64,000 nt of DNA from an uncultured virus (IMG/VR IMGVR_UViG_3300028591_000116) (IMGVR_UViG_3300028591_000116); one strand, 5' to 3'; positions 6,472 through 63,940 are shown, counted from the first letter of the stretch. Translations and numbers: made by a program. The notes: generated by a model not told the origin, from the letters alone.

Positions 6472-6673
6472 TCAACCACTACAACCACCAACTAAGCAAG
6501 TTCCTAAACATGTTCCAATACAGCGTATAACAAAACAACCAGAATTAGAACATGTTGCACCATCGATACATGTAGTCCCGCAATAGGAATGACATCCACT
6601 ACAAAATACTAAACATAAACTAGTGCAACTGTTAAGACATACATCATTCCCACAATTAGAAACACAACTTCCT
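6472..6673 (-). other. Cys-rich cassette 1 (66 aa GSCVSNCGNDVC...LVGGCSG*, 15 Cys), no start codon
   Basis: Translated by hand; starts AGGAAGTTGT, ends GTGGTTGTAGTGG-TTGA; in-frame TAA 8 codons upstream with no ATG/GTG/TTG in between. Confidence 0.85.
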
Positions 6674-6719
6674 TTATGGTTTAAAACAAACTTTTAAACT
6701 TTATTATGAGGTGTGTATT

Positions 6720-7418
6720 ATGATTATTTCAATTGAGTCTTCTGGCTTACAAATACAAATAGAAGATGATAAAAATATAACTCTTCCAGCAGCTGGTATG
6801 CAAGCCAAGCACGGTAGTATCTTTGAAATAGCCGAAGCTTCGGATGCTTGGGTATCTGCTGATTATCATTTTGGTAAATGGCTTCGTAAAGAAGGTGAAG
6901 AAGCAGATAAACTGAAAGCTGAAGAAGAAAAAATAATAGAACTTCATAACGCTAAAGTAGGAAAAGATGATATCTTCTTATTCCTCGGAGATATAGCAGA
7001 ATCTGAATTTGGTGACGAATTCAGACCAGACGCTATGGATTATGTTGTAAAACAAGTACAACGTCTCAACGGTAGAAAGATATTGCTTACTGGTAATAAC
7101 GATACTTGTGATAATGCTTTCTATAAGAAATGTGGATTCGAAGATATATTCCGTAGAGATAGAATTGTTACAGACAAACATGTATTCTCACATTTCCCTG
7201 TAAATATGAGAGATGGTACTAGAATTAACCAGCACGGACATTTGCATGGTTCTTTCGTGTATTACGAATGTGACCCAGAGAATCACATAGATGCTTATTG
7301 GAAGCTTTGGAATGGTCCTATGAGAATAAGTGAACTGGATAATCTTTATAAAGAAGGTAAATATAAAGGTCACTTGGAAGTAAGTACTAAGTCTGAAGGA
7401 AATGATGTCACTTTGTAA
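6720..7418 (+). CDS. calcineurin-like metallophosphoesterase
   Basis: ADYHFG, LGD, GNND, SHFP and HGHLH motifs. Confidence 0.85.
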   Translation: MIISIESSGLQIQIEDDKNITLPAAGMQAKHGSIFEIAEASDAWVSADYHFGKWLRKEGEEADKLKAEEEKIIELHNAKVGKDDIFLFLGDIAESEFGDEFRPDAMDYVVKQVQRLNGRKILLTGNNDTCDNAFYKKCGFEDIFRRDRIVTDKHVFSHFPVNMRDGTRINQHGHLHGSFVYYECDPENHIDAYWKLWNGPMRISELDNLYKEGKYKGHLEVSTKSEGNDVTL

Positions 7419-7490
7419 AAAAGAAAGCCGTTATCCAATTTATACTATATGAGACTTTCTTGTTAAAATATTAAACTATGTGTAACATTT

Positions 7491-7643
7491 TTATGCTACA
7501 GGATAAGAGTTTAATAATTTCTTAGTTTCTATTATTCGAGAAACTTTTTCCTTTTCAGGAATTTTGTTAGAGTTAGAAATAGCTCTGACATATGATCTTA
7601 GAAGCAGATCATTTAAAGATAATTTTATTAAATCATCTTTCAT
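7491..7643 (-). CDS. small protein (50 aa, MKDDLIKLS...) of hairpin-sORF module A
   Basis: Strong AAGGAGGTGA RBS; preceded by hairpin 7673-7698. Confidence 0.6.
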   Translation of the reverse strand: MKDDLIKLSLNDLLLRSYVRAISNSNKIPEKEKVSRIIETKKLLNSYPVA

Positions 7644-7732
7644 AGACTCACCTCCTTGTAGCGTAAAACTTTGAGAGGACCGCAGCAACGGTCCTCTCTT
7701 TTTGTTTATTACTACTTAGATTTGGTTTCATA

Positions 7733-7906
7733 CTAAGCTACTCTACCCATTGATTTAAGACAACGCTCCATTTCGCGTTTAAGACTATCTCTTTCCGAAT
7801 CAGATAAGTTGTCTTTGGCAACCATTTCGCGACAGCGTTTAACTTTTGCCATCTCAGCGATAGATTTTCTGTAGCTATTGTATAAATAAATTTTTTCGTT
7901 TTCCAT
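7733..7906 (-). CDS. small helical hypothetical protein (57 aa, MENEKIYLY...)
   Basis: Read by hand; AGGAG RBS upstream. Confidence 0.6.
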   Translation of the reverse strand: MENEKIYLYNSYRKSIAEMAKVKRCREMVAKDNLSDSERDSLKREMERCLKSMGRVA

Positions 7907-7950: not shown

Positions 7951-8178
7951 TTAAGCAGCCAGTTCAGTGAAGACTGGTACAGATCTTAAATATTTAGTAA
8001 TACTAGTAACTGAATATGAGTAGTAATTTGTACAATTATTAACGTCATAAACATTTACGTCTCGTACAATAATGTGATATTTGCTTATTGGTACAACGAC
8101 CATTCCAGCATAGTATTTTATCATATTATTGATCTCTTTTTCAGAGATAGTGTTCTTTGTGATTATAGATATGATCAT
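7951..8178 (-). CDS. small hypothetical protein, probably early
   Basis: GAGGAGG RBS; early-type motif upstream. Confidence 0.6.
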   Translation of the reverse strand: MIISIITKNTISEKEINNMIKYYAGMVVVPISKYHIIVRDVNVYDVNNCTNYYSYSVTSITKYLRSVPVFTELAA

Positions 8179-8242
8179 TTTTAAACCTCCTCAAGTTATA
8201 ATTTGATTTATCTATTTGGGTTATATCTTCGTCTATATTCAC

Positions 8243-8281
8243 TATTATAATATGAACGTGAAAGACTATGTTGCTTGAAAA
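8243..8281. repeat. 39-bp promoter-containing direct repeat (second copy 63716-63754)
   Basis: tattataatatgaacgtgaaag(a/t)ctatgttgcttgaaaa, one mismatch between copies. Confidence 0.85.
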
Positions 8282-8334
8282 AATTAAGATTAAAACAATA
8301 ATATGATCTAAATATAATAAAATTGGAGGCTTTT

Positions 8335-9592: not shown

Positions 9593-9761
9593 ATGTACCC
9601 CTCCTAAATATTTTTTATTTAGGTCCCACCCTTATGCTTAGCACTGTAGAATAGTAACCCTTTCTCTATTAATAGAATATGTACGTCGAGACACTTGTTG
9701 TGTAAAAAACACATTTTTTGACATCATAATGATTTCGAACAAATGTATTGTGGAGGCTATT

Positions 9762-12700
9762 ATGTCCGAAACAAAGAAATATATATCAATTCCTACTATA
9801 GACGACTGTAAATTGCCTAATTCACTTATTCGTAAGTGTAGAGAGGTATATAGCCAATATGGTAAGTGGAAATTGTATGATCTTCTTAACGCGGATCTTA
9901 ATAATCATACTCTTTATAATAAAGAACAACGAGATAGATTTAAGAATATCGAATTAACTAGAAGATATCTTTATCTTTACAGAAAAGCCATGGCTGAAAC
10001 ACTCAGCTTTGCTTATAATGTAGATCAGACAGATCTTTTAGACGAAGAAGCTCTAGAATTTGATAATACAAACGTTTGTCCTTATTGTGGGAAACCTTTA
10101 ACTCTTTTAACACAGATAGGTTCTAAGAAAGGATTTCCTAAATCACACTTCAATGACGTTGTTAAAAAATACGATAAGCATGTGCTCTTTAATAAGGTAC
10201 CTGTTAGATCAGGCATTAATATTACTCTTTCTGAGTTTTTGGATAGCATAAATCCTGGTATTCAAGTAGGATATTCTTTTGCTTTCTGGTCATTCTATAA
10301 TTCTAATAAAACCAATCTTAGTGAATTATTAGTTAATCCAGATGATCCTACTATTAAAATTGATGAAGAAGATATTGCTGCTATGGATCCTGATTCAGTA
10401 TCAGCTTTACAACCTCAAGGTGATATCAATCTTTTTAAATTCTTGGATCGCAACAAGTATATTACAAACGAAGAAGGCGTTCAAGAATTAAATGAGAATT
10501 ATGGTAAGTTGACTGTTTATGCGGTATTTAAAAGCGATACCGACGTTGTGTATACTATAAACAGAATGGATCTTACAGTTTACGTAAATGATATTATCGA
10601 TATATATTCTTCATCACTGAAAGTCAACGATTCAAATGCATATAAACCTGCTTTTGAATTTTTAGGTGGAAACGACAAAGATATTCTGTATGATTTCAAT
10701 TATATGGTTATTGATACAGATTCTACATCGGATGTTCCATCTTATGTACCTGAAAACAATTATTCAGAAAATAGCGATAAGTTAGCAGTGGATTATGTCA
10801 ATGGTTCAAATATAGACGTTATTGTAGTTTATTCTGCTAAGAGCATGGACAAGAACGAATACACTTATGCTAACTGGGATATGACTATTAGGCAATTGGT
10901 TGTTCAGAACTTCAAAGAACCTGTTTTAAAAGACGTTGTATATCGTTCTAAGTTTGCAGAAGACGGAAAGACTATTATTCCTGAAGAAGGATCTGAAGAG
11001 GTTGTAGGTGTATATAACTTCTTCCATTGGTCTCTGTATGAAGAAGGAGATGTTTATATCCTTGATGATGATAACTCTAAGTCGTTATTAAGAAACATCA
11101 CTTCTATTCTTGATAATAACTCTATCACGGTATATGCTTTGTTTAAGTATGATATCAAAATCGGTACTTATGCTTATGATGACGATTGTTACAGTTCATT
11201 ATATCACCTTTATAAAGGCATAGATAAAGCGTATGCGGGATATACTGATCCCGATAACAGTTTTGTTTATGAATATAGAGTTAACGAATTATTTACTAGT
11301 TTAGTTACTGGTGAAGACGAACTTATCACTAAGAAAGATCATAAACGACTTCCATTAACTAGTAAGATAATGTATACAGCATCTGGTGATGCATATGAAT
11401 TACTTGATGTGAATTATGTCTACAAAGAAACTATTAATGGAAAAGAAACTGTTATTGATATTCCGTATAGAATAACTGCTGAAGAATACGAAGCCTTACC
11501 AGATGGATTATGTAGAGGTATTTATGATGAGCAACGAAGTAACGTTTCTTATCGTGGATATCCTGTTACTGCTGGAGCTGGTGGCGGCGGAATGCGTTAT
11601 GTTAAGAATAACAAAATCAGAGTTATTCGATATAATGCTATTAGTAATAACGGTGTATTAAGTGTAGAAAACGGTAGAAGAACTCAGCATTTCTCTAATA
11701 TGGGAGATACTGAGGTTGAACTCACATACACTACACCTGGTAATTTCGAAATTTGGTATTACTTACCTAGACATCTTTGGTACATCTATGATCCAGAGAT
11801 TGATGCTGATAGACTTAATGCTCTTCAGACAACTTGGGTATTTAACTCGGATCCTTTAAATGAAAGTAAATATAGAACTACTGAACCTGATTCTTCAGAA
11901 ATCGATCTTTATACTAGATTCGTTAGTGCTAAGATGATTACTCGAACTGAATATCTTACACTTACTTCTGAAAACAAACGTAATTGTGTTATTGATCGAA
12001 TTTATTACGAACATCAGTGGGAAAATGAAACTTGGAATGAAACCGATCAATCAGGTAGAGTAATCGCTACGCATAATTACGAAATACAGGAAATCTTTAA
12101 CTGTAAGAGTATTTCTGAATATAACACGCAGGTTGGTACTTCTGACCTATCATTCGGTGTAGATACTAAATCTTATGCCGATATGACTAGAGAAACATTC
12201 AGAGTGTACCAATATCATGTATCTCTTGATAAGAACGTTGATACTTCTTCCGATTACAATCAAGATAATGAGATATCTTACGTAGAAAATGCTTGTGGAT
12301 TAGAGTTCAATGGTGATACTTGGCTGTTCCCTATAACTCGATCTAATCGAGAAAATTTCTTGAAACTTATTCTCGGAGCAGATACACAAGTAGTTAGAAA
12401 TGATTCTAGATTCTTAAGAAACGGAAAAACAATTTTTCTTACTCCTGATATATCGGATATTATAAATATTCCTGAAAACGAAACTTCTGCTGAAAAAGAA
12501 GCAAGAGAAGCATTATTAGATTATACTAGACTTAAACCAACTGATAATACTGGCGTTAACCAGTTGTATTACATATTGACTGGATTATGGAAATGTGTAA
12601 TGTTCACTAACGGTTATAGATTGGTTTATAGAGCCGGTGATAGAAATTGGCCTACTACTGGTGTAGAATCTGATTATGTAGCTAATGCTTGTAATGGAGA

Positions 12701-15700
12701 AATTCAGTTAAAAGATTTGGTTTACAAATACAATGCATCATTGCGTTTGGATATAGAACACTCTATAGATGAAACTAATAATCTGTATTACGTTCTTTTC
12801 AAGAATATCACTTTAATTTCTCCTGGTGCTTCTAATTACACATTCTATAACTCTAGTGAAGAAAATGTCGTTCTTGAAGATACAGTTGCTAGTATTGCTT
12901 ATACAACTAAGACAGATATTATTCCATTTGATGATTCAGTTCAATATGTGAAGTATTCTGATAAAGCAACTACTACATACGGTTACGGTTTGTCTTACAT
13001 GACACATCTTACAAAAGATACACTTAGATCTTACTTCACTGAAGATGCAGATAATAAAGCAAGACAATTCTTTGAAGAATTGAAAGCTAAACTTATAGAT
13101 CCCGAACAACCTGATTATTATGAAGAAAAGGTTGACGGAAACGGAAATACTTATTACGAGAAGACTGATAGAAACTTGAGGTATTATGATCTTAAAGATG
13201 TATCATACGATGATCTCGATGATTATCATTTGATTTCTCCTATCGTATTTACTAAAGATATTGATGGAGAGAATTTCGATGCTAAGAAAGAATACTTTAA
13301 GTTAGTAGACGATCGTTATGTTCCATTGGGATTAACTGGATACACTGTTGATAACAAAAACTATAAGATAACTGGTACATCGACACAATCATACATCAAA
13401 GGAGTTTATATAAAGCTTTGGTGGGAAGATATTTATGATCTTGTTACTGAAACTACTTTGATTAACGGAATTCAGATTGAAAAACTTAAAGCTCCTGAAT
13501 ACAATCAGATGTTGTATAGACCTGAAACAGATGTTGAACTTCAACTTAGACGCAATGAGTATTATGATACTTATGGTGTAAATCCTGTAACTGAAGAGAC
13601 TAAAAATACCAAGGTTATCGTTGAATTCAGCGGTAAACAAATACCATTTAGTCCAGAAGACGGATCTGATAGGATATACGAAAATAGTGTATATTCTAAA
13701 TGGGGTTCTTCGGCTGTAACTCTCGATAATGAATATCTTATATCTGGTGGATATCCAAATCCTTCTAGTAATATACGTACTGATGATCCTAGTGATAATC
13801 AGTTTATCGAAGAGAAAACAGAATTCTATGCAAACACTAGATCAATGAGAAGCTTATCTAAATCTTCAGTTTCTTATTCTGGCGATACACAATCTGTTAT
13901 TGAAAATAAAGAAGATGATTCTAATAGTACAATAAAAGATACTGATGTAAAAGAATTGGATGACCGTATTTGGTGGAACCAATTCAGTAAACGTCTTTCT
14001 GGTGAAGCTAAGAATATATTCATAACCGACTATGGTGTAAACTTTAGTGGCTGGATATGGACTGGTTGGAAAGAAGGTTATATTATAGACGGAGACAATA
14101 TTTTAGTTGGTGGAAACACTAAGAAAGTAGAAGGCGGTCTCATTGAAGCTTATCCGTTTGAATCTTCTAATAAAGCAAACTATGTAACTCAAGGATTCCA
14201 GCGTATTCTTTTCCCTAAGGATGTAAACTCTACATTTGAAACAGAACAATATGACACGACTGATGATGGTGTAATTAATACACACAACAGAGTTGAAGGT
14301 GACGGTTTAAGTTCAGAATTAGTTAATAGAATTGATTCTGAAACAGGTGAACCTTTAAGACTGCTAAGATACTGTAGTAATCAGTCTTGTGAAATGTATC
14401 TTAAACGTCTGGATAAACGCAAGTGGTCTTTCAGAAACAGAGATGTTGGTGTTCAGACTACAAACAGTTTGAATTCACTATACAACATTATGGCTCTTGA
14501 CGAGTATCTGCTTCCTATTGGAAAAGACGGATCTTTCAAGAATTATAAAGCTACTAAATTTGCTGCTACTGAACCTGATAAAACAGCTAAATTTGGTATA
14601 TCAGATGTACCTAAGTTAGTAACTGTTGAACCAGTAGACGAAAACAGTGTTGAATTCGGTGGTTGGACGCTTGACAAATATCCGTGGCATTACGGTGAAG
14701 ATGAAGCTACTAAACAGAAATATAATGAATACGTTCGTTATTATCTCCATCGTGGTGGTAATGCCCTTCCTGACCCATTCAGATTCGAATTTGAATGGAA
14801 GTATGCTACGAATGAATTCTCTAATACAAAAATGAGTGGTTACGGTAACGGTTCTAATTTAGACGATACCACAACTCAGCTTGATACAATAAAGCAAATA
14901 AGTCATAGAACTAAGAATAGAATAGTTCCTATGGAAACTAGATCTATTCCTGAATATCAGCAAAAATATCTGGATGTATTGTTCAATACTTTTGAAAACG
15001 TATTCATACAACTTAACACTAATTCTTCTCCTTATTCTTTATTCAGCCAAGAAGAGATTTATGTTATGAATGAGATTTTAATAGATCTATTCACATTCAA
15101 CAAAAACTCTGATTCAGAACACATGATGGACTTCGTTAAGTTTAAACTTGATATAGTTACTCTCATGAATGACATGACTGAATACGAATTTAATCTTGCT
15201 AATTATTGGCACGATGGAGATTACGAATATAACAAACAGTTACTTGAAGATTTCTATTCTAGAACACACGGATCTAGTTCAGTTGAGGGATTAAAAGATC
15301 TGTCAGATGTTGAATTTGAAAAAGCAATACTTGGTACTGATTTGAATGAAGACAATCCACAGACTATATTCCCATTCTATTCTTGTAAACTCACTAATGA
15401 TACTTGGGATAGATATGAAAATCATCCTGTTAGACGTATCATCATTAAACGAGAATACACGCCAACAAATAATATGACTGAACGTGAGATCATAAATACT
15501 GTGTGGGGTGGAGATCCTAGTTATACAGGATATAAGTTTATGGGTTGGTATAAAGATCAGCTTACATTTAATAAATATTATCCTGATACTAGTGAAGGAA
15601 CCACAGTAATTGCGGCAGGTCATAAATTCGTTGCTTATCTTAGATTTGATGCTGGAACTTATGTAAATGAAGAATTCGTTGCAGGAACTAACAATATTCT

Positions 15701-18080
15701 TGGAACGTTTGAAAAAGCATTAATCACTTTCGAAGAAGGAAACGACATTTATCTTTTGTTTGACGTAGAAGATATTCCTTCTAGAATATGGTATATTGGC
15801 GAAGATACAATTAAAGATAGTTTAAAACTTAGACTTTCTGAACTTCATGAAAAACTCATGTTGCCTACAGAGTTCATGTGTAGCTTGTTTAATTTTATTA
15901 TTGCTCCAAAGCGATACAATATAGTTGAATCTGAACGTGGCGAAATCACTAGTTTACTGGTTGATTCTGGTGTTATTACTACACCTTCTAGCAAAAATGT
16001 ATTGAGTATAACACGACCAGCAGATTATATTAGTTACAAAGATGCCGTAATTTCTAAATCTTGGAATATGGCTACTAATGAGGAAACTGGTAAGAGCGTT
16101 AAGGAACAGTATTATATTATCTACAATGATAATAAATTTGATGCTTATTCTTTCTTTAATGAGGGATGGATCAAAGACGTATATGGTGAAGAAAATGCCT
16201 CTGCTAAATTCCCACTGTTACGTGATACTGAAAACCCTATTACTCACAACTCTTCAGGTAACAATACTCTGTTGAATATCATACCGTTCTCTACTAAGAA
16301 ATACGAATCTGCGTTAGCTTTAGTTTACGATAAAGGTATATTACTTGTAAATCTTACAGGCATTCATACTAAGACTGAAGATACACAGTGGATTAAACTC
16401 GAAGATGGAAGTAAGATCTTATCTCCTGAAAAATTGTTTAGTTCTGCTTCTCTTTCTATAGTAGATTGTAAACTAGATGAGTATAACGGAAGCAATAACC
16501 TTATAATCATTTCAGACAACTCACAAATAGCTTCTTTTGATCTTGATGAAGAAAAGATTTATAATCCTAACGTTAATTATTTAGCGGGAGTAGGTTATGA
16601 AAAACTTAATTCTACTAGAGATAAACTTCCTATAACGTTTAAGAAAACTGATGGTGTTAATGGAAGATCTACTACTTCTTTAAGAAAAGGTAGAGCTATA
16701 ACTGTTGTTGGAGAATCAGCTGCTACACTTATAGGCGAAAATGAAGAAAGATATGTTGAAAAACGTGTAGGTTTAACTATATTAGCAGGAACTCTTAGTC
16801 CTAATCCTTCTGGTTACGACGGAGATCCTTGGATTCTTATGTCTAAATATGCTAATTCTGGTTTACCTGCTTCTCTTTCTGATATCAATTACGAAAAGTT
16901 GTTAGATGCTGATAAAGACAAATACAAAATACATCCTAAACTCACAGTACAGTATGCTTGGGATAATAGTCCATTAAAGAATTATTCTCCTGATCCTACT
17001 ATCGATTACGAGTATATAGATGTGTATACAGATGAGTTTGATCAGTATACTGAAGGTACTTTCAAGATTTATCATAATGGTAATCTTATTAGTAAGAACG
17101 TTTATTTTAGTTATACTGACGAATTAAGAAAAGAATGTAAGATCTACAAGATAATTTCTATCAATTATTCATTTGTACGATTGTCGTTCTCTAATACTGG
17201 TACTGGATTCTACGATGAAGAATTCGAAGCTAGACTTACTAAAGAAAAACCATTGTACGCTTTCTATTATAAAACTGGTGTTGAAGTAGATGAGCACTAT
17301 GGTTACAAAATACAAACCACAGAAAATATAGTTGATGGCAGAGATACAATTATGTCTGATGCTTTCGACGAATATTTAAAAACTGATGGTAACAATTCAA
17401 GTTCTACGGACTTCAATAAAGTAAAAGAAATACCCGGTTGGAAAATAGTAAATTCTTTCACAGATTATACCAAGAATGTTGTAGATAAACTCGATATTAT
17501 TGAAAATATCAAAAAAATATTCCCTATTGAAGGATACGTTAACAGTTCCACAGGAAAATACGTTTATCAATACATCATTTCCGACGGATATATTTCACAG
17601 TTGATTCAGTGGGTTGATGGAGAAATTCAAATACTCAGTGAATATAATTTTGACGATAATAATGAACTCTTATACGTTAAAAATATAGACAGTGACTTGT
17701 CTACATATATGATCTTTAAAAATCAAAGAATAGTTAAACTTGAGACATACGAGTATGTTCCAAACGAAATTTCTATTCCTAGAATGGATAAGATTAGTTT
17801 CTTTGTTAAGACTGATAATCCTAATGATGAAACAAGTATATCTTACGTAACAGAAGATAAACGATTAGTCAATGTCTTATTGAATAGTTCTATTGTTGAA
17901 GCTGACAACCCAACAATTTATAATGAGAAGTCGTTAAAAGACGCATTTGAGAATATCACGTCGTTAATTAACTGTGAGATTCAACAGACTGAACCTTTTA
18001 AATATGTGTCTAACTATAGACGTTGGCATGTGTTACCTGGAAATGATAAGTCTAAACTTATTGAAGCTCAAATAAACTAA
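9762..18080 (+). CDS. giant (~2770 aa) probable virion/tail-associated protein
   Basis: Uninterrupted ORF; GGAGG before ATG 9762; late-type motif 9720-9732; several 'F.xW...TVYA.FK' repeat-like segments; no catalytic motif recognised. Confidence 0.65.
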   Translation: MSETKKYISIPTIDDCKLPNSLIRKCREVYSQYGKWKLYDLLNADLNNHTLYNKEQRDRFKNIELTRRYLYLYRKAMAETLSFAYNVDQTDLLDEEALEFDNTNVCPYCGKPLTLLTQIGSKKGFPKSHFNDVVKKYDKHVLFNKVPVRSGINITLSEFLDSINPGIQVGYSFAFWSFYNSNKTNLSELLVNPDDPTIKIDEEDIAAMDPDSVSALQPQGDINLFKFLDRNKYITNEEGVQELNENYGKLTVYAVFKSDTDVVYTINRMDLTVYVNDIIDIYSSSLKVNDSNAYKPAFEFLGGNDKDILYDFNYMVIDTDSTSDVPSYVPENNYSENSDKLAVDYVNGSNIDVIVVYSAKSMDKNEYTYANWDMTIRQLVVQNFKEPVLKDVVYRSKFAEDGKTIIPEEGSEEVVGVYNFFHWSLYEEGDVYILDDDNSKSLLRNITSILDNNSITVYALFKYDIKIGTYAYDDDCYSSLYHLYKGIDKAYAGYTDPDNSFVYEYRVNELFTSLVTGEDELITKKDHKRLPLTSKIMYTASGDAYELLDVNYVYKETINGKETVIDIPYRITAEEYEALPDGLCRGIYDEQRSNVSYRGYPVTAGAGGGGMRYVKNNKIRVIRYNAISNNGVLSVENGRRTQHFSNMGDTEVELTYTTPGNFEIWYYLPRHLWYIYDPEIDADRLNALQTTWVFNSDPLNESKYRTTEPDSSEIDLYTRFVSAKMITRTEYLTLTSENKRNCVIDRIYYEHQWENETWNETDQSGRVIATHNYEIQEIFNCKSISEYNTQVGTSDLSFGVDTKSYADMTRETFRVYQYHVSLDKNVDTSSDYNQDNEISYVENACGLEFNGDTWLFPITRSNRENFLKLILGADTQVVRNDSRFLRNGKTIFLTPDISDIINIPENETSAEKEAREALLDYTRLKPTDNTGVNQLYYILTGLWKCVMFTNGYRLVYRAGDRNWPTTGVESDYVANACNGEIQLKDLVYKYNASLRLDIEHSIDETNNLYYVLFKNITLISPGASNYTFYNSSEENVVLEDTVASIAYTTKTDIIPFDDSVQYVKYSDKATTTYGYGLSYMTHLTKDTLRSYFTEDADNKARQFFEELKAKLIDPEQPDYYEEKVDGNGNTYYEKTDRNLRYYDLKDVSYDDLDDYHLISPIVFTKDIDGENFDAKKEYFKLVDDRYVPLGLTGYTVDNKNYKITGTSTQSYIKGVYIKLWWEDIYDLVTETTLINGIQIEKLKAPEYNQMLYRPETDVELQLRRNEYYDTYGVNPVTEETKNTKVIVEFSGKQIPFSPEDGSDRIYENSVYSKWGSSAVTLDNEYLISGGYPNPSSNIRTDDPSDNQFIEEKTEFYANTRSMRSLSKSSVSYSGDTQSVIENKEDDSNSTIKDTDVKELDDRIWWNQFSKRLSGEAKNIFITDYGVNFSGWIWTGWKEGYIIDGDNILVGGNTKKVEGGLIEAYPFESSNKANYVTQGFQRILFPKDVNSTFETEQYDTTDDGVINTHNRVEGDGLSSELVNRIDSETGEPLRLLRYCSNQSCEMYLKRLDKRKWSFRNRDVGVQTTNSLNSLYNIMALDEYLLPIGKDGSFKNYKATKFAATEPDKTAKFGISDVPKLVTVEPVDENSVEFGGWTLDKYPWHYGEDEATKQKYNEYVRYYLHRGGNALPDPFRFEFEWKYATNEFSNTKMSGYGNGSNLDDTTTQLDTIKQISHRTKNRIVPMETRSIPEYQQKYLDVLFNTFENVFIQLNTNSSPYSLFSQEEIYVMNEILIDLFTFNKNSDSEHMMDFVKFKLDIVTLMNDMTEYEFNLANYWHDGDYEYNKQLLEDFYSRTHGSSSVEGLKDLSDVEFEKAILGTDLNEDNPQTIFPFYSCKLTNDTWDRYENHPVRRIIIKREYTPTNNMTEREIINTVWGGDPSYTGYKFMGWYKDQLTFNKYYPDTSEGTTVIAAGHKFVAYLRFDAGTYVNEEFVAGTNNILGTFEKALITFEEGNDIYLLFDVEDIPSRIWYIGEDTIKDSLKLRLSELHEKLMLPTEFMCSLFNFIIAPKRYNIVESERGEITSLLVDSGVITTPSSKNVLSITRPADYISYKDAVISKSWNMATNEETGKSVKEQYYIIYNDNKFDAYSFFNEGWIKDVYGEENASAKFPLLRDTENPITHNSSGNNTLLNIIPFSTKKYESALALVYDKGILLVNLTGIHTKTEDTQWIKLEDGSKILSPEKLFSSASLSIVDCKLDEYNGSNNLIIISDNSQIASFDLDEEKIYNPNVNYLAGVGYEKLNSTRDKLPITFKKTDGVNGRSTTSLRKGRAITVVGESAATLIGENEERYVEKRVGLTILAGTLSPNPSGYDGDPWILMSKYANSGLPASLSDINYEKLLDADKDKYKIHPKLTVQYAWDNSPLKNYSPDPTIDYEYIDVYTDEFDQYTEGTFKIYHNGNLISKNVYFSYTDELRKECKIYKIISINYSFVRLSFSNTGTGFYDEEFEARLTKEKPLYAFYYKTGVEVDEHYGYKIQTTENIVDGRDTIMSDAFDEYLKTDGNNSSSTDFNKVKEIPGWKIVNSFTDYTKNVVDKLDIIENIKKIFPIEGYVNSSTGKYVYQYIISDGYISQLIQWVDGEIQILSEYNFDDNNELLYVKNIDSDLSTYMIFKNQRIVKLETYEYVPNEISIPRMDKISFFVKTDNPNDETSISYVTEDKRLVNVLLNSSIVEADNPTIYNEKSLKDAFENITSLINCEIQQTEPFKYVSNYRRWHVLPGNDKSKLIEAQIN

Positions 18081-18087
18081 CAATATT

Positions 18088-18116
18088 CTCTCCCTCATTA
18101 AGAGGGAGAGTTTTTT
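18088..18116 (+). terminator. intrinsic terminator
   Basis: ctctccctc-attaa-gagggagag followed by T6. Confidence 0.85.
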
Positions 18117-18154
18117 AATCTATTAAAAACTATATTTGTATATACTTTATATTG

Positions 18155-18904
18155 AGTGGAGTATACTTTATGTGTGGTAGGTATATTTCTGCATGGTAGG
18201 AAATTGTTATCTTACACCAAGATAGCTGTTAGATACCAGTGATGAGTATAATTTGGTCAGGTGAATTGATGACTGGGTTATATGTGGATTTTCACAAAAT
18301 CGTGCGAGTTATAGACTTCTCGTAAATTCCAGAAATAAAAGAAGGGCACGTCATGTTAGGTCGATTCCGTCACTTCCAACAGTGGGTAAGACCGAGTATT
18401 GATTAGTGTACAGTGAAAGTTCGAAACTGAGAGTGGACAAAGTGCGTAGCAATTGGATGAAACTCTCTAGCGGTCAACGGATTTCGGTCTAGTTTGGGTG
18501 CAGTACAACATATATAGCTTACATATAATTTTAACGTGGGATAGCAAAATGGAAGAAGGTACTGATTGACTTTGGTAGATACATGTGGTGTTATGTATTT
18601 ATTGAGGAACATGTATACACAATATTATTGATAGACTTCAACACTATTGAGAAGAAAAAAGGAAAATCTCAATGCTAGATATAGCCGAACGGTTGTGGTT
18701 ATAACGTACCGCAATAGTGGTTGAGCAACCCACACTCACCTTATCAGCAACCAAAACCCTGTCGTCAGCCATCAGTGTCTTAGCTCAGACAAAAATAAGA
18801 GGAGGCTGAGGTCACCATTAGGAGGATTGATAAAGATTCCTATCGTGGTGTAACAATACCAGAACTTTGGGAGGGTCTTAGACCCTCCTGTCATTTTTTT
18901 TTTT
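18155..18904 (+). ncRNA. candidate large structured non-coding RNA (~750 nt), family unassigned
   Basis: No credible ORF, higher G content than flanks, many local helices, terminal hairpin 18870-18888 then a long T run; 5' end approximate. Confidence 0.5.
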
Positions 18905-19016
18905 GAATTCTTTAATCCTAATTTATTTATATATTTCTAAAAATAACTGGACACGATTATGAAAAACATATAGTATTTTTCACTCGTAGAAAGTAACTAT
19001 ATTTAAGGAGATTTCA

Positions 19017-27196: not shown

Positions 27197-27277
27197 TGAA
27201 TGTGCTTCTGATTTAATAACACGGCTTGGAATTCTTTCTAAGTAGTCAGAACTATCATTTTTGCTCCTTTTGTTTTT

Positions 27278-27304
27278 CCTCCTCTCATAATGAGAGGAGG
27301 TTTT
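27278..27304 (+). terminator. intrinsic terminator immediately 5' of cassette 2
   Basis: cctcctctca-taa-tgagaggagg followed by a T-rich run. Confidence 0.8.
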
Positions 27305-27312
27305 CTTTTATT

Positions 27313-27544
27313 AGGAAGTTGTAGAGATCATTGTCAGACTTGTGGCGGCACATGTGCTAGTAATTGTGCTAGTCAAATATCGTGCACTCGTGCTTGTTGG
27401 GGAGCGACATGTGATACTACTTGTGGGTCTTGTGATGTTGGTTGTTATGCTAACTGTAAAGGGGGATGTCAAAACGGTTGTGCTGATAATTGTAACCGAT
27501 TTTGTGGATTATTTGCTGCTTATGGAGACGGTGGTTGTAGTGGT
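27313..27544 (+). other. Cys-rich cassette 2 (77 aa GSCRDHCQTC...GDGGCSG, 17 Cys)
   Basis: AGGAAGTTGT at 27313-27322; ends GTGGTTGTAGTGG; the only ATG (27290) is inside the terminator hairpin, with no RBS. Confidence 0.85.
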
Positions 27545-27592
27545 ATAATTTATAATAGATGAAACTTTTATATGATATAAAAGGAGTTTATT

Positions 27593-28816: not shown

Positions 28817-28822
28817 AATAAG

Positions 28823-28846
28823 CTCCTCCCTATTATAGGGAGGAGT
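28823..28846. terminator. bidirectional intrinsic terminator
   Basis: ctcctccct-attat-agggaggag between convergent genes. Confidence 0.8.
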
Positions 28847-28853
28847 ATTTCTT

Positions 28854-40252: not shown

Positions 40253-40280
40253 GGAGAGGCCAATGAAGCCTCTCCTTTTT
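40253..40280 (+). terminator. intrinsic terminator adjacent to cassette 3
   Basis: ggagaggc-caatgaa-gcctctcc followed by a T run. Confidence 0.8.
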
Positions 40281-40284
40281 CTTT

Positions 40285-40492
40285 TTAACCACTACAACCA
40301 CTATCAATAGACAATGTCCCACATCTATTATAGCATCCATTTCCACAATTTTGAGTACACACACCCATGGCACATATTCCTCTACAATCTCCAGTAAGAC
40401 AGTGATCTGAACATGAACTTCCATAATGATCATAATATTCCATACATTTATAAGCGCAATTGTGCGCACACCTTGTATTTTCACAACTTCCT
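40285..40492 (-). other. Cys-rich cassette 3 (68 aa GSCENTRCAHNC...DSGCSG*, 13 Cys)
   Basis: AGGAAGTTGT at 40492-40483; ends GTGGTTGTAGTGG-TTAA; the only upstream start is a TTG antisense inside the next gene. Confidence 0.85.
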
Positions 40493-40552
40493 AATTTAGT
40501 ACTTTTTCGACATTTAAATGATCGAAAAATAATATAATAAGAGGATAAAACT

Positions 40553-42455: not shown

Positions 42456-42496
42456 TAACTTTCGTCTCTCCTCGTTATCGGGGGGGGGGCGAAAAC
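42456..42496 (+). repeat. G-run/pyrimidine hairpin repeat, copy 2; likely terminator
   Basis: tttcgtctctcctcg-ttat-cg-G run-cgaaa; reverse complement of 14-56. Confidence 0.75.
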
Positions 42497-42527
42497 TTTA
42501 TGTTATTACCCGATAAAGGATATAAAG

Positions 42528-44456: not shown

Positions 44457-44510
44457 ATAATACACTCACTTTTATATTATATTTGTGGAATGGGAGAAAG
44501 GAGGTTTATT

Positions 44511-44714
44511 ATGAATAACAGATTCACTTTCGAAGATCTCGGATTACACAAAGTCAAAGATGTTGATGAAAACAAATTGCGTAATGTATATAAAGATTTT
44601 GAAGCTCATCCTTTAAAGTATATTACTCCGCAAGTGAACATTGACACTTTACCAATGGTTGATCTGAAACAGCTTTACAGAAACAAAATTATCGAAACAG
44701 CTAAAGCTATGTAA
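44511..44714 (+). CDS. small hypothetical protein
   Basis: AAGGAGG RBS; TATATTAT upstream. Confidence 0.7.
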   Translation: MNNRFTFEDLGLHKVKDVDENKLRNVYKDFEAHPLKYITPQVNIDTLPMVDLKQLYRNKIIETAKAM

Positions 44715-44722
44715 TCCAAGAC

Positions 44723-44752
44723 AAGACCAGCCATAATGGCTGGTCTTTTTTT
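44723..44752 (+). terminator. intrinsic terminator immediately 5' of cassette 4
   Basis: aagaccagcca-taa-tggctggtctt followed by a T run. Confidence 0.85.
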
Positions 44753-44755
44753 ATT

Positions 44756-44978
44756 AGGAAGTTGTATATTGAATACGTGTTCTAAAAACGCATGTGTAAC
44801 ATATCCCTGTTCTATGTGGTGTGCAGGTAACTGTAATGGAGGTTTTGCAGCTTGTTCGTTTTGTGCTGGTGCAACACGTTGTGCTTGTAATAATAACTGT
44901 GAGTCTGCTTGTTCAAAAGGTTGCGGAAACGGGTGTACCAATTGTTGTTTCGGTCTTAATTCTAGTGGTTGTAGTGGA
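44756..44978 (+). other. Cys-rich cassette 4 (74 aa GSCILNTCSKNAC...NSSGCSG, 17 Cys)
   Basis: AGGAAGTTGT at 44756-44765; ends GTGGTTGTAGTGG; the only ATG (44736) is inside the terminator hairpin. Confidence 0.85.
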
Positions 44979-45072
44979 TTTAATCAACCTCTATATACGA
45001 TTGTATATTTAATTATTGGTATTAGGGAAAGGATAAACTAATAAACTCTAATAACCAAGGAGAACTAAAAAT

Positions 45073-45813
45073 ATGGCTAATGAAGTTAAGGGGAACCTTC
45101 AGTTCAACGAAATGTTGTACTCAGAAATTGGAGAAGACATCAATGTCGCAAACAGCAAAAACGTTTCTATCGCAGCTTTGGAAAGTTGTGGTAATATAAG
45201 ACGCATGGTAAACCACGCTGTCCGCATTATTACCAAGCTTACACCATGGCATCTAGCGAAGGTACAAAAATACGTTGGAAGCCTTGAAGGTAGATCTAAT
45301 AATCAGATCTACACAAAATTTGTTACTATTAATCTTAGTGACATCTATGAGGTGGGAAATGAAGAATTGACTAATTGTTTCAATTGGATTTGTGGAATGC
45401 TCATAAATCCTGTTGACGATTATACATATAGCCTCTGGTGTGATGCGATGAGCGAAAAGAGATATTCTATCGAACGCTACAATCGCAATGAAAAGTCAGG
45501 AACAGTCAACAGTATCACTTTCAGATTTATTGTTATGAAATATAACGGGGTTTGGAAGCGGCTTGACACTGAGGTCAACGTTAAACGCACTAGACCAGCT
45601 GAAACTCTTGAAGAACAGCAGGAAGAATTTGCTGCATCTGAAGAGAATAAACCGGTTAAAAAACCTGCAAAGAAACCTGCTAACAAAAAGAAAGCGCCAG
45701 CAGCTAAGAAATCTGTAAAAGTAGAAGATGCTAAAGAAGCTGAAGCAGACACAAATGAATATACTGAAGATGATACTTATTCGTATAAGATAGGCGACGC
45801 TCTTAAGAAATAA
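45073..45813 (+). CDS. hypothetical protein with KKPA-rich tail
   Basis: AAGGAG RBS; low-complexity basic C-terminus. Confidence 0.75.
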   Translation: MANEVKGNLQFNEMLYSEIGEDINVANSKNVSIAALESCGNIRRMVNHAVRIITKLTPWHLAKVQKYVGSLEGRSNNQIYTKFVTINLSDIYEVGNEELTNCFNWICGMLINPVDDYTYSLWCDAMSEKRYSIERYNRNEKSGTVNSITFRFIVMKYNGVWKRLDTEVNVKRTRPAETLEEQQEEFAASEENKPVKKPAKKPANKKKAPAAKKSVKVEDAKEAEADTNEYTEDDTYSYKIGDALKK

Positions 45814-52443: not shown

Positions 52444-52541
52444 TTTAAACTCCTTTATGATTCATTTAAATGTCGAGACGTATATTTTGAAGAAAAAAGA
52501 ACAGACTTCTGGGCCTGTTCTTTCTTAAAGTTGGTTAACGG

Positions 52542-52802
52542 TTAGTTAGCAGATTGCTTTTTAAGCTGATGCTTGTGATATAACAAGAATGCTCCCCACC
52601 ATACAACACTTACTGCTGTGGAAATGATAACTAGAAGCATACATGCTTTGAAGCTTACAAAAATCCACAGTAAAATACATGCTATAGTTTCAAGCATTCC
52701 AAGAACCCAACCAGCAATGCCGATCCATTTTGCTCCATACATCATCTCAGATGCAGTCATGAATCCGTCCCACCAAGCTTTTACAAATTCTTTAAAAGTC
52801 AT
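52542..52802 (-). CDS. small membrane protein, probably early
   Basis: Two hydrophobic helices; AAGGAG RBS; early-type motif upstream. Confidence 0.7.
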   Translation of the reverse strand: MTFKEFVKAWWDGFMTASEMMYGAKWIGIAGWVLGMLETIACILLWIFVSFKACMLLVIISTAVSVVWWGAFLLYHKHQLKKQSAN

Positions 52803-52904
52803 ATATTTCTCCTTGGTATTTCTCTACTATACCAAGAATATAATATAAACGTCAAAAGATATAATAAATAAAAAAACTAGGGACACTAAGGTCCCTAGTA
52901 TAAT

Positions 52905-54878
<1,974 letters not shown>

Positions 54879-54957
54879 TTATAATAATGTAGTAAAGAAG
54901 GAGGGGACCGAGCCACGGTCCCCTCCAAATTTGTTTTACTGCAAGGAGGTGAATCCT

Positions 54958-61038: not shown

Positions 61039-61144
61039 AATTTTTAACCTCCCTTACTAAATAGAGAATATATAAAGAATACTTTCAGTAGAATAAAATA
61101 TAATCAGTTTAACTTCATAGTGAACGACAAAAGGAAGTGCTTTA

Positions 61145-63394
61145 ATGATACATGCTAATACTAAAAATTTCAGTTTTCTTAAAGTACATTTATTTTTGAA
61201 GAATAAAGGGATTAAAAATAATGCCTTCTTTCTAGAATTAATAGACGAATCTCTAGATGGAGTAGACGTTTTCGATGAAGAGAATTTAACTACTGAACAA
61301 AAACAAAGAATCATAGTTGAATGTTGTAGAAACCCTTGGTATTTTTTCAGAGAAGTATTACGTATACCTGCTGCTGGTCTTATAAGATTCGAATTGAACT
61401 TAGGAAACTTAGCAAGCTTATGGTGTAGTTTAAATAGCATTAACCATTATTTAATATTGCCACGACAGATTGGTAAAACACAGTGTGAAATGGCAATGTT
61501 CTTGTGGATAACATATTTTGGTGGAAATAACTGTAGTATCAAGTTATTCGCTCAGAACGATACAAAGGTAGAAGATAACATGTCTCGTATTAAAACTATG
61601 CGAGATAACCTACCTCAATATCTTCAGTTAAAACAACCGTTGGATAAAAACGGAGAAGTTATAACTTATACCACATTGGGAAACAAAGTTTCTGGTATGG
61701 CTCCAGCGAGAAGTGAAGCAATCGCTAACCAAAAGTTCCGTGGAGAATCATATAACTTGTGTAACTACGACGAACATGCATTCATCCCTTATATTGAACA
61801 GCAATACCGTTCTTCAGTACTTGCTTATATGGAAAATGCGCGTAAAGCAGAACTTAACGGTCAGTTACATTACATTTCCATCACTACAACTGCTGGATTT
61901 TTAAATACTAAAGAAGGACAATTCTCTTTTAATTTTAAAAATAATTGTTTCGACTTTACAGAAAAATTATACGATTTAACTATAGAAGAAGTAAGAGAGT
62001 TAATTCGTAATAACGCTAAAAATAACTTCATATTTATTGAATATCAATATTGGGATCTCGGTAAAGGCGATACTTATTTCAAAGAACAGTGTGAAGCTCT
62101 TGAATATAATCAAGATGCTATTGACCGAGAAGTTCTTTGTAAATGGAAAGCGGTATCTACCGTTCATCCTCTTGGTCAGCAGGTTCTAACTTTACTTGAA
62201 AAGAATAAACGAATGCCTATACATACTGTCATTTTGAATAAATTGTTTAGAATGAAGATGTATAAAGATCCTGAAACACTTGATTGGTCTATTCCATATA
62301 TTATTGGTGGAGACTGTGCTAACAATGTAGGATCAGACTATTCTGCTTTAGTAATAATCAATCCTTATACGTATGAAGTAGTTGCTACTATACGAACAAA
62401 TATGTTCAGTACCATGCTGTTTGCAGCTATGCTTGCTGATCTTATGAAAAAATACTTCTATAGATCAATCCTTGTTCTTGAAAGAAACTTGAATGGTGCT
62501 ACTATTATAGATAGACTTATAGAAATTGATTTCTCATTGGCTAGTAGAATTTACGGACCAATGGATGAAAAGACTAAACAGATAAAAGAATTCGGTATTA
62601 ATACTAATGAAAAGAGCCGTAAGATGGTTTATGGTCAGGTATTAAAGATAGCAGTAGATGACAGTTATGATCGTATTTACGATCGAGTTATTATAGATGA
62701 AATTTCTTCTCTTATAACTACTAGAACAGGCAGAATCGACCACCCTGTTGGTGGACACGATGACTTGTTAATCAGTTATCTCTTTGCTAGATGGTTCTTA
62801 TTGTTTGGTAATAACAAAGACAGATATATTAATCCGTTAACTATAGGTTGTATGGTTCAAGAATTTGAAAAGAATAAAGGAGATGAAGATCAAATGAGAA
62901 GCATAATGAATGAAAAACTAAGTGATATCTCTGAAGAAAGCAAAAGAAAGAAAAAAGAAAACAATAACTCTGTTGTTGATACAGAAGTTAATATCAGTAG
63001 TACTGATCGTATCAAGAAACAGAGAGAAATGCTTAAACGCGGAGACGTAACTGAGTTAAACCTGAATAGAGTTAAATCTACAGCTAATGACGTCTTTAAC
63101 AGTATGTATGGAATGTTAAACGATAGATATGATGTAGATGTCAAAGATCAGCTAGAAAGACAAAATGATGACGGTAAACTGTATACTCTTGATCCTGAAG
63201 AAATGAAGAAAGACGAGGATAATCTGTACGACGAAAAGATTCAGATGAATGAATATAATAGAAATATGCACGACGATCTAGATACTAAAGTACAGGTTAT
63301 GCAAACCACTCCTCAGTTTATCCGAACTCAGCAAAGTCACGCAGACAACACAGTTAATGACGAGATGAGATATTTCTTTAGTCATTTACGATAA
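61145..63394 (+). CDS. terL: terminase large subunit
   Basis: PRQIGKT (Walker A), YDEHAF (Walker B), TTTAG, nuclease motifs GGDCA..G.DYS, LERN and HDDL; N-terminus NPWYFFREVLRIP as in phiKZ-like terminases. Confidence 0.9.
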   Translation: MIHANTKNFSFLKVHLFLKNKGIKNNAFFLELIDESLDGVDVFDEENLTTEQKQRIIVECCRNPWYFFREVLRIPAAGLIRFELNLGNLASLWCSLNSINHYLILPRQIGKTQCEMAMFLWITYFGGNNCSIKLFAQNDTKVEDNMSRIKTMRDNLPQYLQLKQPLDKNGEVITYTTLGNKVSGMAPARSEAIANQKFRGESYNLCNYDEHAFIPYIEQQYRSSVLAYMENARKAELNGQLHYISITTTAGFLNTKEGQFSFNFKNNCFDFTEKLYDLTIEEVRELIRNNAKNNFIFIEYQYWDLGKGDTYFKEQCEALEYNQDAIDREVLCKWKAVSTVHPLGQQVLTLLEKNKRMPIHTVILNKLFRMKMYKDPETLDWSIPYIIGGDCANNVGSDYSALVIINPYTYEVVATIRTNMFSTMLFAAMLADLMKKYFYRSILVLERNLNGATIIDRLIEIDFSLASRIYGPMDEKTKQIKEFGINTNEKSRKMVYGQVLKIAVDDSYDRIYDRVIIDEISSLITTRTGRIDHPVGGHDDLLISYLFARWFLLFGNNKDRYINPLTIGCMVQEFEKNKGDEDQMRSIMNEKLSDISEESKRKKKENNNSVVDTEVNISSTDRIKKQREMLKRGDVTELNLNRVKSTANDVFNSMYGMLNDRYDVDVKDQLERQNDDGKLYTLDPEEMKKDEDNLYDEKIQMNEYNRNMHDDLDTKVQVMQTTPQFIRTQQSHADNTVNDEMRYFFSHLR

Positions 63395-63479
63395 AAGAAA
63401 AAGACTCCCTGACAATTCACATGACAGGGAGAATGAGAAACATGATAAATTTTTAAACAATGTATTACATTATAATGAA

Positions 63480-63671
63480 TTATTTAGATGTGGTATTTCT
63501 AAAATAACTCATGTCCGAATCTAAGTCTTGCTTAGAATAATTCGGACTGTAACACAAGTTTGAGTGGAGGGGTTCGTGTGCCCCTCCACTTTTTCTCGTG
63601 TACAAATAATATAATAATTCATCAATAGGAATTGTGTCTAGTATAGTTTTTAACTCATTAGTTATAACCAT
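63480..63671 (-). CDS. small hypothetical protein, probably early
   Basis: GGAGG RBS; downstream of the 39-bp promoter repeat; contains two hairpins, so coding status is uncertain. Confidence 0.4.
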   Translation of the reverse strand: MVITNELKTILDTIPIDELLYYLYTRKSGGAHEPLHSNLCYSPNYSKQDLDSDMSYFRNTTSK

Positions 63672-63754
63672 ACAACCTCCAAAGTTTAAAATAATTTACT
63701 CCTTTTATTTCTCATTATTATAATATGAACGTGAAAGTCTATGTTGCTTGAAAA

Positions 63755-63940
63755 TCCACTACAACACTTCCACAAACATTTCGGCATTTATTAGTACACG
63801 GAGATGATCCGCAGTCATTATTAGCACCACCCACGCCACATAATGCTCCACACCATAATTGGTGGCCGCAAAACGCTTGACAACTTCTAGCATCACCATA
63901 ATACGGATCTGTATTCATGCAGAAACCTACACAACTTCCT
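63755..63940 (-). other. Cys-rich cassette 5 (GSCVGFCMNTDPYY...CRNVCGS), 1-nt deletion in the 3' anchor
   Basis: AGGAAGTTGT at 63940-63931; 3' end reads AGTG-TTGTAGTGG, which shifts the terminal CSG out of frame. Confidence 0.8.

Follow-up and report, generated by a model that had tools for sequence, protein, structure and literature searches.

Dispersed, start-less cysteine-rich cassettes with a fixed ten-nucleotide head in a jumbo phage of the ruminant gut, possibly silent modules of a CXXX-repeat protein

Silent donor cassettes of antigenic variation are known from Neisseria (pilS), Borrelia (vls, with boundary repeats of 17 bp) and Treponema (the tprK donors). Alternative coding segments are also found in the R64 shufflon, with Rci and its 19-bp sfx sites, and in the Gin and Cin systems of phages Mu and P1, where they are segments of tail fibres, and in CdiA/Rhs loci orphan C-terminal toxin modules retain a short piece of the conserved junction, through which they can recombine with the main gene. 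The present report concerns five cysteine (Cys)-rich segments, here called cassettes or copies, dispersed through 64 kb of the uncultured virus genome IMGVR_UViG_3300028591_000116; this whole stretch of DNA is referred to as the window, and the window searches given below cover it. The original prediction, made from the sequence alone, took the segments for donor modules swapped at short identical anchors into one expressed gene. It is suggested here, tentatively and with less than even confidence, that the cassettes are silent modules for a C-terminal end, and that they become joined at another place to an N-terminal part which is expressed. The proteins that they resemble, the CXXX-repeat targets of radical S-adenosylmethionine (SAM) maturases, are a known database kind; repeat-only cassettes which are start-less, multiplied, dispersed and headed by a fixed word of 10 nucleotides (nt) are new.

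The word AGGAAGTTGT was counted six times in the window, where shuffles predict 0.21 occurrences. Five of the matches head Cys-rich frames (at 6673 on the minus strand, 27313 plus, 40492 minus, 44756 plus and 63940 minus); the sixth, at 38742 on the minus strand, is intragenic, is not followed by a Cys-rich frame and is a chance match. The word at the other end, GTGGTTGTAGTGG, is present four times against an expectation of 0.00. The 5' anchor thus defined has 10 bp and the 3' anchor 13 bp, and the frame read from the second anchor base runs from GSC to GCSG. The five cassettes are the following:

6475..6673, minus strand: cassette 1, antisense, between two plus-strand genes; anchor AGGAAGTTGT at 6664-6673, 66 codons, 15 Cys, GCSG, then TGA at 6472-6474
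27313..27544, plus strand: cassette 2; 77 codons, 17 Cys, GCSG, running on for 5 codons to TGA at 27560-27562
40288..40492, minus strand: cassette 3, antisense; 68 codons, 13 Cys, GCSG, then TAA at 40285-40287
44756..44978, plus strand: cassette 4; 74 codons, 17 Cys, GCSG, running on to a stop at 45039-45041
63742..63940, minus strand: cassette 5; 66 codons, 10 Cys, ending in GSVVVDFQAT and a stop, the 3' anchor one G short

All five are intergenic relative to the called genes. Five open Cys-rich segments (66-77 codons and 13-17 Cys in the four intact copies), each starting with AGGAAGTTGT and four ending with GTGGTTGTAGTGG, are therefore present as originally described. The description was also right about the ends: two copies stop directly past GCSG (with TGA and TAA) and three continue for 5-20 codons. 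In copy 5 the 3' anchor reads AGTGTTGTAGTGG at 63756-63768; one G has been lost and its last codons are shifted by this loss. When taken from an upstream ATG the open reading frame (ORF) of this copy spans 63739-63951, and it is found in a public protein set as P0001. The distances between copies amount to 4-21 kb. Along the window (6.6, 27.3, 40.4, 44.8 and 63.9 kb) cassette orientation alternates strictly (minus, plus, minus, plus, minus); such an order has a chance of 1 in 16, would suit inversion between neighbours and is not significant alone.

The 5' anchor is identical in seven of seven cassettes, namely the five of the window and two of a relative, L018, in which the genes flanking the cassettes have about 80% DNA identity with those of the window. 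L018 is a 13-kb metagenome contig which encodes a 79%-identical protein homologue of gene 42528-44456. In cassette codon use, GGA makes up 30 of 74 glycine codons, AGT 18 of 57 serine codons and TGT 74 of 94 Cys codons, so that GGA-AGT-TGT would be expected about 0.10 times per copy; it was observed in all seven, which shows that the constraint on the 5' word acts on the nucleotides. The base before the glycine codon is weak evidence because third-position A is, by our estimate, common in this genome. For the DNA-level constraint proposed earlier, the main signal comes from the three synonymous sites of the 5' anchor; the 3' anchor varies in L018.

Of the six frames, the Cys frame alone is without a stop in each of the seven cassettes, the others being interrupted in most copies, and a stop-free frame of such length arises in 0.08-1% of base shuffles per cassette. 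Cys accounts for 15-23% of the residues and recurs as a tandem Cys-x-x-x repeat: 54 of 99 Cys-to-Cys gaps are exactly 3 residues long, which makes CxxxC the commonest spacing. The composition (Cys 19.5%, Gly 17.1%, Ser 13.4%, Asn 8.1%, Lys and Glu below 2% each, Ile below 2.5%) is unlike what we would expect of an ordinary protein in DNA so AT-rich, and Cys is encoded by TGT 74 times and by TGC 20 times. Judged by frame, codons and composition, the cassettes are coding sequence. Folding of two cassettes gave no consistent excess of structure (z -0.34 and -2.23), Rfam, tRNA and tmRNA searches gave no match, and an AlphaFold2 model of cassette 2 built with 7 sequences had a mean predicted local distance difference test score of 38 and was unusable.

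The protein family to which such frames may belong is suggested by other phages. The original prediction had expected the anchor pair within a long expressed gene, and a scan of IMG/VR for the pattern gave 17 loci, of which two have open frames (L014 and L015) and the rest are chance matches. L014 is not of the CxxxC type; L015 is a gene of G001, a complete, distantly related jumbo phage of 254 kb with direct terminal repeats and 28.7% GC. This single canonical gene encodes 500 amino acids (aa), that is a 115-aa N-terminal part (the N-domain) and 385 aa of CxxxC-type repeats. Its neighbours are genes for tail and tail-fibre proteins. A radical-SAM/SPASM protein of 444 aa is encoded 2.5 kb downstream of it and gives a match to NCBIfam TIGR04115 ("radical SAM peptide maturase, CXXX-repeat target family") with an E-value of 8e-149 and 496 bits against a cutoff of 350:

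188570-196190 of G001 (the contig of L015): tail-fibre block with a 760-aa tail protein, the 500-aa CXXX-repeat protein, two proteins of about 100 aa, a 497-aa tail fibre with S74 chaperone domain, a 111-aa protein and the TIGR04115 maturase

In a language-model atlas the 500-aa protein falls beside viral clusters in which 13-47% of members carry PF27846 (tSAM_targ_Cxxx_rpt). Two unannotated gut phage-like records, L042 and L043, encode a homologous maturase (tblastn) with its target just upstream. The target of L042 has an N-domain homologous to that of G001 (E 4e-7) followed by about 75 aa of repeats, which is the length of a cassette, and that of L043 has a twin-arginine (TAT) signal followed by repeats and ends in GCSGGAIFVSY. 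The profile phrog_6085 matches all three full-length targets (E 2.8e-8 for G001, 1.7e-5 and 1.2e-9 for the other two) and weakly cassette 2 (E 0.029, profile positions 60-127 of 129), the other six cassettes giving no match at E<=1. Tblastn with the G001 protein reaches cassettes 4, 2 and 1 (E 1.6e-5, 5e-5 and 3.6e-4), in the Cys-rich part only. Thus the cassettes look like the repeat region of CXXX-repeat targets from the first Cys to the natural C-terminal end, minus the N-terminal part. It also appears that the type of recipient originally predicted, a tail-region protein with a Cys-rich end and a radical-SAM neighbour, exists in other phages.

Other searches with the cassettes were empty: Pfam and NCBIfam, tblastn of cassette 2 against GenBank phages and a word-based protein search with the same cassette gave no match, the ESM atlas gave no usable match to it, and the 17-mer formed by T run and anchor met five loci in IMG/VR, all by chance. 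A profile of the seven cassettes found a single match among 1.84 billion representatives, the window's own copy 5, and none among sequences of the PDB. A protein search with the G001 N-domain yielded no homologue, and no paper was found in a literature search on CXXX-repeat radical-SAM targets.

Start codons were sought by listing the codons back to the nearest stop in the three forward frames of each cassette, and no conserved ATG, GTG or TTG was present upstream of the seven cassettes in any frame. Copy 1 is preceded by 7 open codons without ATG, GTG or TTG; copy 3 has upstream TTGs only, which lie where the divergent gene starts, and the corresponding cassette of L018 has none. In-frame ATGs stand 8, 7 and 4 codons upstream of copies 2, 4 and 5, those of copies 2 and 4 (27290 and 44736) in the loop of the upstream terminator hairpin. 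A Shine-Dalgarno sequence was found before none of the candidate cassette starts, while ordinary genes of this phage have clear GGAGG-type sites. The statement that no copy has a ribosome-binding site plus start is thus correct for the ribosome-binding site and has to be modified for the three copies with an ATG. A lipoprotein signal (LLGSC) was considered and rejected, as its 6-10 residues are too short and its hydrophobic residues are the translated T run. The signals around the cassettes are:

6443..6465, no strand assigned: hairpin of 8 pairs, lying between the end of gene 5650-6435 and the stop of cassette 1, seen by eye and not called by the scan
27278..27300, plus strand: terminator-like hairpin of the upstream gene, 10 pairs and a T run, ending 12 nt before cassette 2
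40253..40275, both strands: two-way terminator-like hairpin, its T run abutting the cassette 3 stop codon
44723..44747, plus strand: terminator-like hairpin, 11 pairs and a T run, ending 8 nt before cassette 4
40509..40521, plus strand: GACATTTAAATGA, late-promoter-like motif of gene 40553-42037, facing away from cassette 3
1710-1722, minus strand: GACATTTAAATGA site
31106-31118, minus strand: GACATTTAAATGA site
36982-36994, minus strand: GACATTTAAATGA site
52462-52474, minus strand: GACATTTAAATGA site

In plus-strand terms the layout is gene, terminator, cassette in either orientation, promoter and next gene. Sense copies 2 and 4 start 8-12 nt past the terminator stem, which is 3 nt past the T run, and the stop codons of antisense copies 1 and 3 abut a T run. 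The hairpin at 44723..44747 is present in L018 with the loop ATAAT changed to ATCGT, by which the in-frame ATG is lost; the L018 loop holds a GTG, one base out of frame across a run of eight T.

The motif GACATTTAAATGA (with 0-2 mismatches) stands 18-40 nt upstream of five gene starts and always faces the gene. The late-promoter consensus of phage AR9, as given in PMC7598289, is AACA-N6-T[A/G]; GACATTTAAATGA fits it and is therefore probably the late promoter of this phage, with transcription starting at the G of ATGA. None of the five cassettes is faced by such a motif. Matches of sigma-70 type are not enriched over 26500-45500 (73 versus 94 expected) and are somewhat above shuffles near copy 1 (7 versus 2.9); candidate sigma-70-like promoters upstream of copies 1 and 3 were rejected.

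It is very improbable that the cassettes are non-coding elements, with a TGT periodicity recognised by a factor that binds DNA or RNA, or with an anchor that belongs to a promoter or terminator. Each cassette does abut a regulatory hairpin or promoter, and at copy 3 and its L018 equivalent the 5' end lies 17 nt from the late-promoter-like core of the divergent gene. Nevertheless, an RNA or DNA element such as a binding array would need neither a stop-free frame nor the alternation of TGT and TGC (74/20) nor the Gly/Ser-rich codons, and the anchor is absent from the other four late-promoter-like sites, for which reason it was also rejected as a general promoter part.

L018 carries cassettes at both sites that it shares with the window, with identical orientation and 5' anchor and with unrelated interiors. 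The flanking genes have 75-90% DNA identity, whereas the gapped identity of same-site cassettes is 64-65%, against 57-70% for all pairs. Retention at both shared sites in spite of unrelated interiors implies that selection maintains these start-less frames. The gene directly after cassette 4 (45073-45813, compared with 4965-5633 of L018) is among the most diverged, with 24-42% gaps from 45600, and an 86-aa gene (52542-52802) with its surroundings (52500-52900) corresponds to a gap in the L018 alignment.

It is improbable that the cassettes are inert debris, i.e. fragments of a CXXX-repeat gene scattered by illegitimate recombination at microhomology of the GTTGT type and decaying without function. 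Debris would explain the lack of any expression signal, the frameshift in the 3' anchor of copy 5, two 1-nt deletions within copy 3 (at 40373 and 40375) in a strain of about 95% identity, X3, and the location at neutral insertion points, the gaps between terminator and promoter; moreover, GGAAGTTGT and GGTTGTAGTGG recur naturally within full-length CXXX genes. It is at odds with seven of seven frames being stop-free and Cys-periodic although same-site interiors have diverged to saturation, with the retention of both shared sites in L018 and with a 5' boundary identical in all copies.

The main rival explanation, rather unlikely in our estimate, is that each cassette is a stand-alone gene for a CXXX-repeat peptide, the substrate of a radical-SAM maturase of the phage or the host, and is translated in place by unconventional means. 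Either the anchor would be the initiation signal, or sense copies would start at the ATG or GTG of the terminator loop on read-through transcripts. Direct selection of this kind would explain open frames at fixed sites in two diverged phages, and strict conservation of the 10-mer suits a signal read in every infection. The three sense copies of the window are preceded by an in-frame ATG at a distance of 4-9 codons, and the corresponding loop position of L018 has its GTG, albeit out of frame. The anchor (GGAAGTTGT-RNN) resembles the initiation region GGAGGTTGT-ATG (63672-63683) of gene 63480-63671, and copies 1 and 3 are closed as ordinary genes are, by a stop and then a terminator. Against this stands that copies 1 and 3 and the L018 equivalent of copy 3 have no conserved ATG, GTG or TTG in any frame; that there is no Shine-Dalgarno sequence and the codons at the start position (GTT/AGA/GAA/ATA/GTA/GAA/AGT) are never a start; that no promoter motif faces the cassettes; and that the three full-length targets carry an N-terminal domain or signal which the cassettes are without.

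Joining may also be imagined at the level of RNA or the ribosome, by template switching, by trans-splicing to a leader RNA at the anchor, or by translational bypass or frameshift; this is quite improbable. A short conserved word right before each body is what joining of leader to body would need, the upstream genes, 117 and 42 nt off across the hairpin, share the reading frame of copies 2 and 4 in the window, and the frame AGG-AAG-TTG meets a stop right after TTG in four of seven cassettes. In L018, however, the distance is 38 nt and the frame is no longer shared; upstream of the antisense copies there is no gene, and matching take-off and landing codons are missing. Three of the eight purine-started dinucleotides after TTGT would give a stop anyway, the Rfam and folding results show no family and no consistent structure, and the 74-aa protein upstream of copy 4 is unrelated to the N-domain. 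That protein had been considered as the missing N-domain and was rejected on negative BLASTP, hhalign and PHROGs results. Read-through fusion to the upstream genes was likewise rejected, as the in-frame relation is not kept in L018, and so was a +1 frameshift at TTG-stop, as copies 1 and 3 are without an upstream start in that frame.

According to the preferred reading, that of silent C-terminal modules, the five segments would be copies of the C-terminal Cys-rich region of a CXXX-repeat protein, without start and promoter. They would be silent in place, lying at operon boundaries past a terminator and ahead of the next promoter in either orientation, a position which would leave the neighbouring operons intact even after a reciprocal event. 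Expression would come about only on joining, at AGGAAGTTGT (Gly-Ser-Cys), to an expressed gene outside the window which supplies promoter, start codon and N-terminal part and which would probably stand in a tail-fibre/maturase block as in G001. Joining could proceed through gene conversion at microhomology or through site-specific inversion at the anchor, and its outcome would be a changed Cys-rich end of a virion-associated protein. In a general form, namely that the phage keeps a dispersed start-less library for a programmed event at the 10-nt word, be it C-terminal switching or translation without a start codon, the proposal is somewhat doubtful.

A number of observations weigh against silent modules. 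The anchors, at 10 and 13 bp, are very short. Neither the known cassette arrays nor the shufflons are spread over 57 kb and among essential genes as the cassettes are. A 10-mer so strictly conserved would be expected at a site needed during each infection rather than at one that is only rarely a substrate of recombination. When all six frames were scanned for Cys-dense stretches, no long ORF with such a region was met elsewhere in the window, and no homologue of the N-domain was found in the six frames of the window or of L018, which was checked for Cys-rich frames, anchors and N-domain. Among the 50 ORFs of the window there is no radical-SAM protein (tblastn of the G001 maturase against the window was also empty; L018 was not searched for it), no reverse transcriptase domain and no member of a recombinase family (L018 was not searched for these two either). 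The earlier remark that neither recipient nor recombinase is visible in the window is upheld by these scans. Same-site cassettes of window and L018 are no closer than different-site ones, the longest strings common to cassettes measure 7-10 nt without mosaic blocks, and other L018 stretches are equally diverged (45100-45800, for example, at 39-58% identity), so that plain fast divergence may also account for the interiors. The 3' anchor differs in L018, where one cassette ends with GGTGGGTGTAGTGAG and a stop two codons later and the other passes GGCSG and stays Gly/Ser/Cys-rich to the contig end, over at least 115 codons.

Further points against come from the source run, the sequencing runs being analysed as Logan contigs only. 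A possible source is run X1, labelled sheep gut metagenome, in which 99% of the words sampled from a 5.2-kb stretch are present. One of its contigs covers 28817-42501 and another 42472-45200 and beyond, each free of differences, from which it follows that copies 3 and 4 have a single context there. A break at 27313-27342 in this run fits a one-base variant at 27312 in a minor strain, the depth right of the break being 14.8 versus 12.3. Two anchor joints (27322 to 27531 and 40301 to 40480) occur in one contig each, with shorter sides of 22 and 27 letters, and both can be explained as cross-matches between copies at the anchors and similar flanks. Direct support for exchange into an expression site was found neither in the window nor in L018 nor in these contigs, and the exchange model is not refuted by them either.

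No strand-changing joints were listed. In X3 the alignment of copies 3 and 4 does not differ from that of their flanks. At the edges of copy 2 it breaks off instead: one contig is aligned up to 27309 and goes on with 21 unlike letters, and a second is aligned from 27530, which hints weakly that this cassette is replaced or polymorphic in the strain. One contig of an RNA run has its end at 40286, which is also where the terminator T run beside copy 3 finishes, and eight listed pieces lie on flanking genes and none on cassettes, a cover too thin to call the cassettes silent. A hairpin with a run of ten G at 42460-42494 is a place where the source-run contigs break, and one of them has a 1-nt length variant at 42502.

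The phage itself is a distant jumbo phage of the AR9/phiKZ type from the ruminant gut. PHROG and Pfam matches in the window indicate a jumbo phage with its own multisubunit RNA polymerase and include tail tube, head-tail joining and baseplate-like proteins and an NAD-dependent DNA ligase, besides two larger landmarks:

19017-21032: split RNA polymerase beta-like subunit
61145-63394: large terminase of 749 aa

The terminase shares only about 30% identity with phiKZ-like phages, its best E-values being with Bacillus jumbo phages. Terminase profiles match it solely over residues 1-195 and 427-548, and the alignment with relatives extends to about residue 595, which may reflect a possible insertion or a diverged middle part with a C-terminal extension. 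Megablast of 3 kb of the window against GenBank phages gave no DNA match. Searches of IMG/VR with a flanking 642-aa protein and the terminase, and a two-sequence alignment search of IMG/VR and GTDB genomes, gave no usable locus, and no close relative is present there. The 5.2-kb stretch found in X1 is partly present in 23 further runs from 17 other studies, and those labelled with a habitat are mostly of bovine, sheep or goat gut. The GC content of the window is 29-36% per 2-kb bin.

An ORF of 2783 aa (9729-18080) is without PHROG or Pfam match. It is followed by about 0.9 kb of mostly non-coding DNA around a 69-aa ORF (18081-19016), just upstream of the RNA polymerase beta-like gene, which includes a strong hairpin and then eleven T; Rfam searches over 18000-19100 gave sub-threshold matches only. 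Upstream of two small minus-strand genes, 7951-8178 and 63480-63671, a repeat of about 40 nt, CAAGCAACATAG.CTTTCACGTTCATATTATAATA, was recognised by eye and looks like a second promoter class:

about 8240-8282, minus strand: repeat copy
63711-63753, minus strand: repeat copy
54867-54892, plus strand: shorter form CGTTCATATTATAATAATG

CXXX-repeat targets have so far been database families only, and the finding places them in tail-gene blocks of phages. It further points to a lineage in which the repeat part alone is multiplied and stripped of expression signals, and is still under selection. If cassettes were swapped into an expressed gene, this would be a new route by which a lytic phage diversifies a virion protein, and C-terminal switching of a radical-SAM-modified, tail-associated protein would provide diversification of host range or surface without a retroelement. 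Translation in place would instead make the fixed 10-mer the mark of an initiation route not known so far.

In comparison to the described systems, the pilS, vls and tprK donors are, like the cassettes, partial coding copies without promoter and start which are kept open and have short boundary words and variable interiors; such open partial ORFs, typical of vls and pilS, are what the window contains, and pilS copies are dispersed as well. Those systems possess a known expression site and mosaic products, whereas the window showed no recipient and no mosaicism, and the host of the cassettes is a lytic-type jumbo phage. The shufflon, Gin and Cin systems share with the cassettes start-less alternative C-terminal segments in both orientations and a conserved word inside the coding sequence at the junction of constant and variable parts, and their segments belong to proteins of adhesin or tail-fibre type. 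They are, however, clustered within a few kb beside a recombinase, while the cassettes lie 4-21 kb apart and no recombinase is present in the window. The CdiA/Rhs orphans are start-less C-terminal modules that keep a short junction stretch, as the cassettes do; unlike the cassettes they are found directly downstream of the main gene, with an immunity gene and longer junction homology.

A diversity-generating retroelement, in which a template and a variable repeat differ at adenines only, is not matched, there being no reverse transcriptase in the window and the copies differing in length and being 57-70% alike when gapped. Neither is a leader-dependent precursor of a ribosomally synthesized and post-translationally modified peptide (ranthipeptide/SCIFF), as the cassettes have no started leader peptide before the Cys-rich core. 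In T4-type phages the flanking motifs of PeSL regulatory cassettes promote modular shuffling between phages (PMC2839356). These are likewise small variable units at terminator/promoter boundaries, yet they consist of promoter and stem-loop around ordinary ORFs with starts (PMC2839356), whereas the conserved words of the cassettes stand inside the frame.

The cassettes differ from the three full-length CXXX-repeat targets, each of which has a start codon, an N-terminal domain or TAT signal and an adjacent maturase, in being without all of these and in being present in at least five dispersed copies. They are like them in having Cys at every fourth residue in a setting rich in Gly, Ser, Thr and Asn, in the length of the repeat region (about 68-75 aa in short members, as in L042 and at positions 60-127 of phrog_6085), in the style of the C-terminal end (GCSGG in L043) and in their occurrence in jumbo and gut phages.

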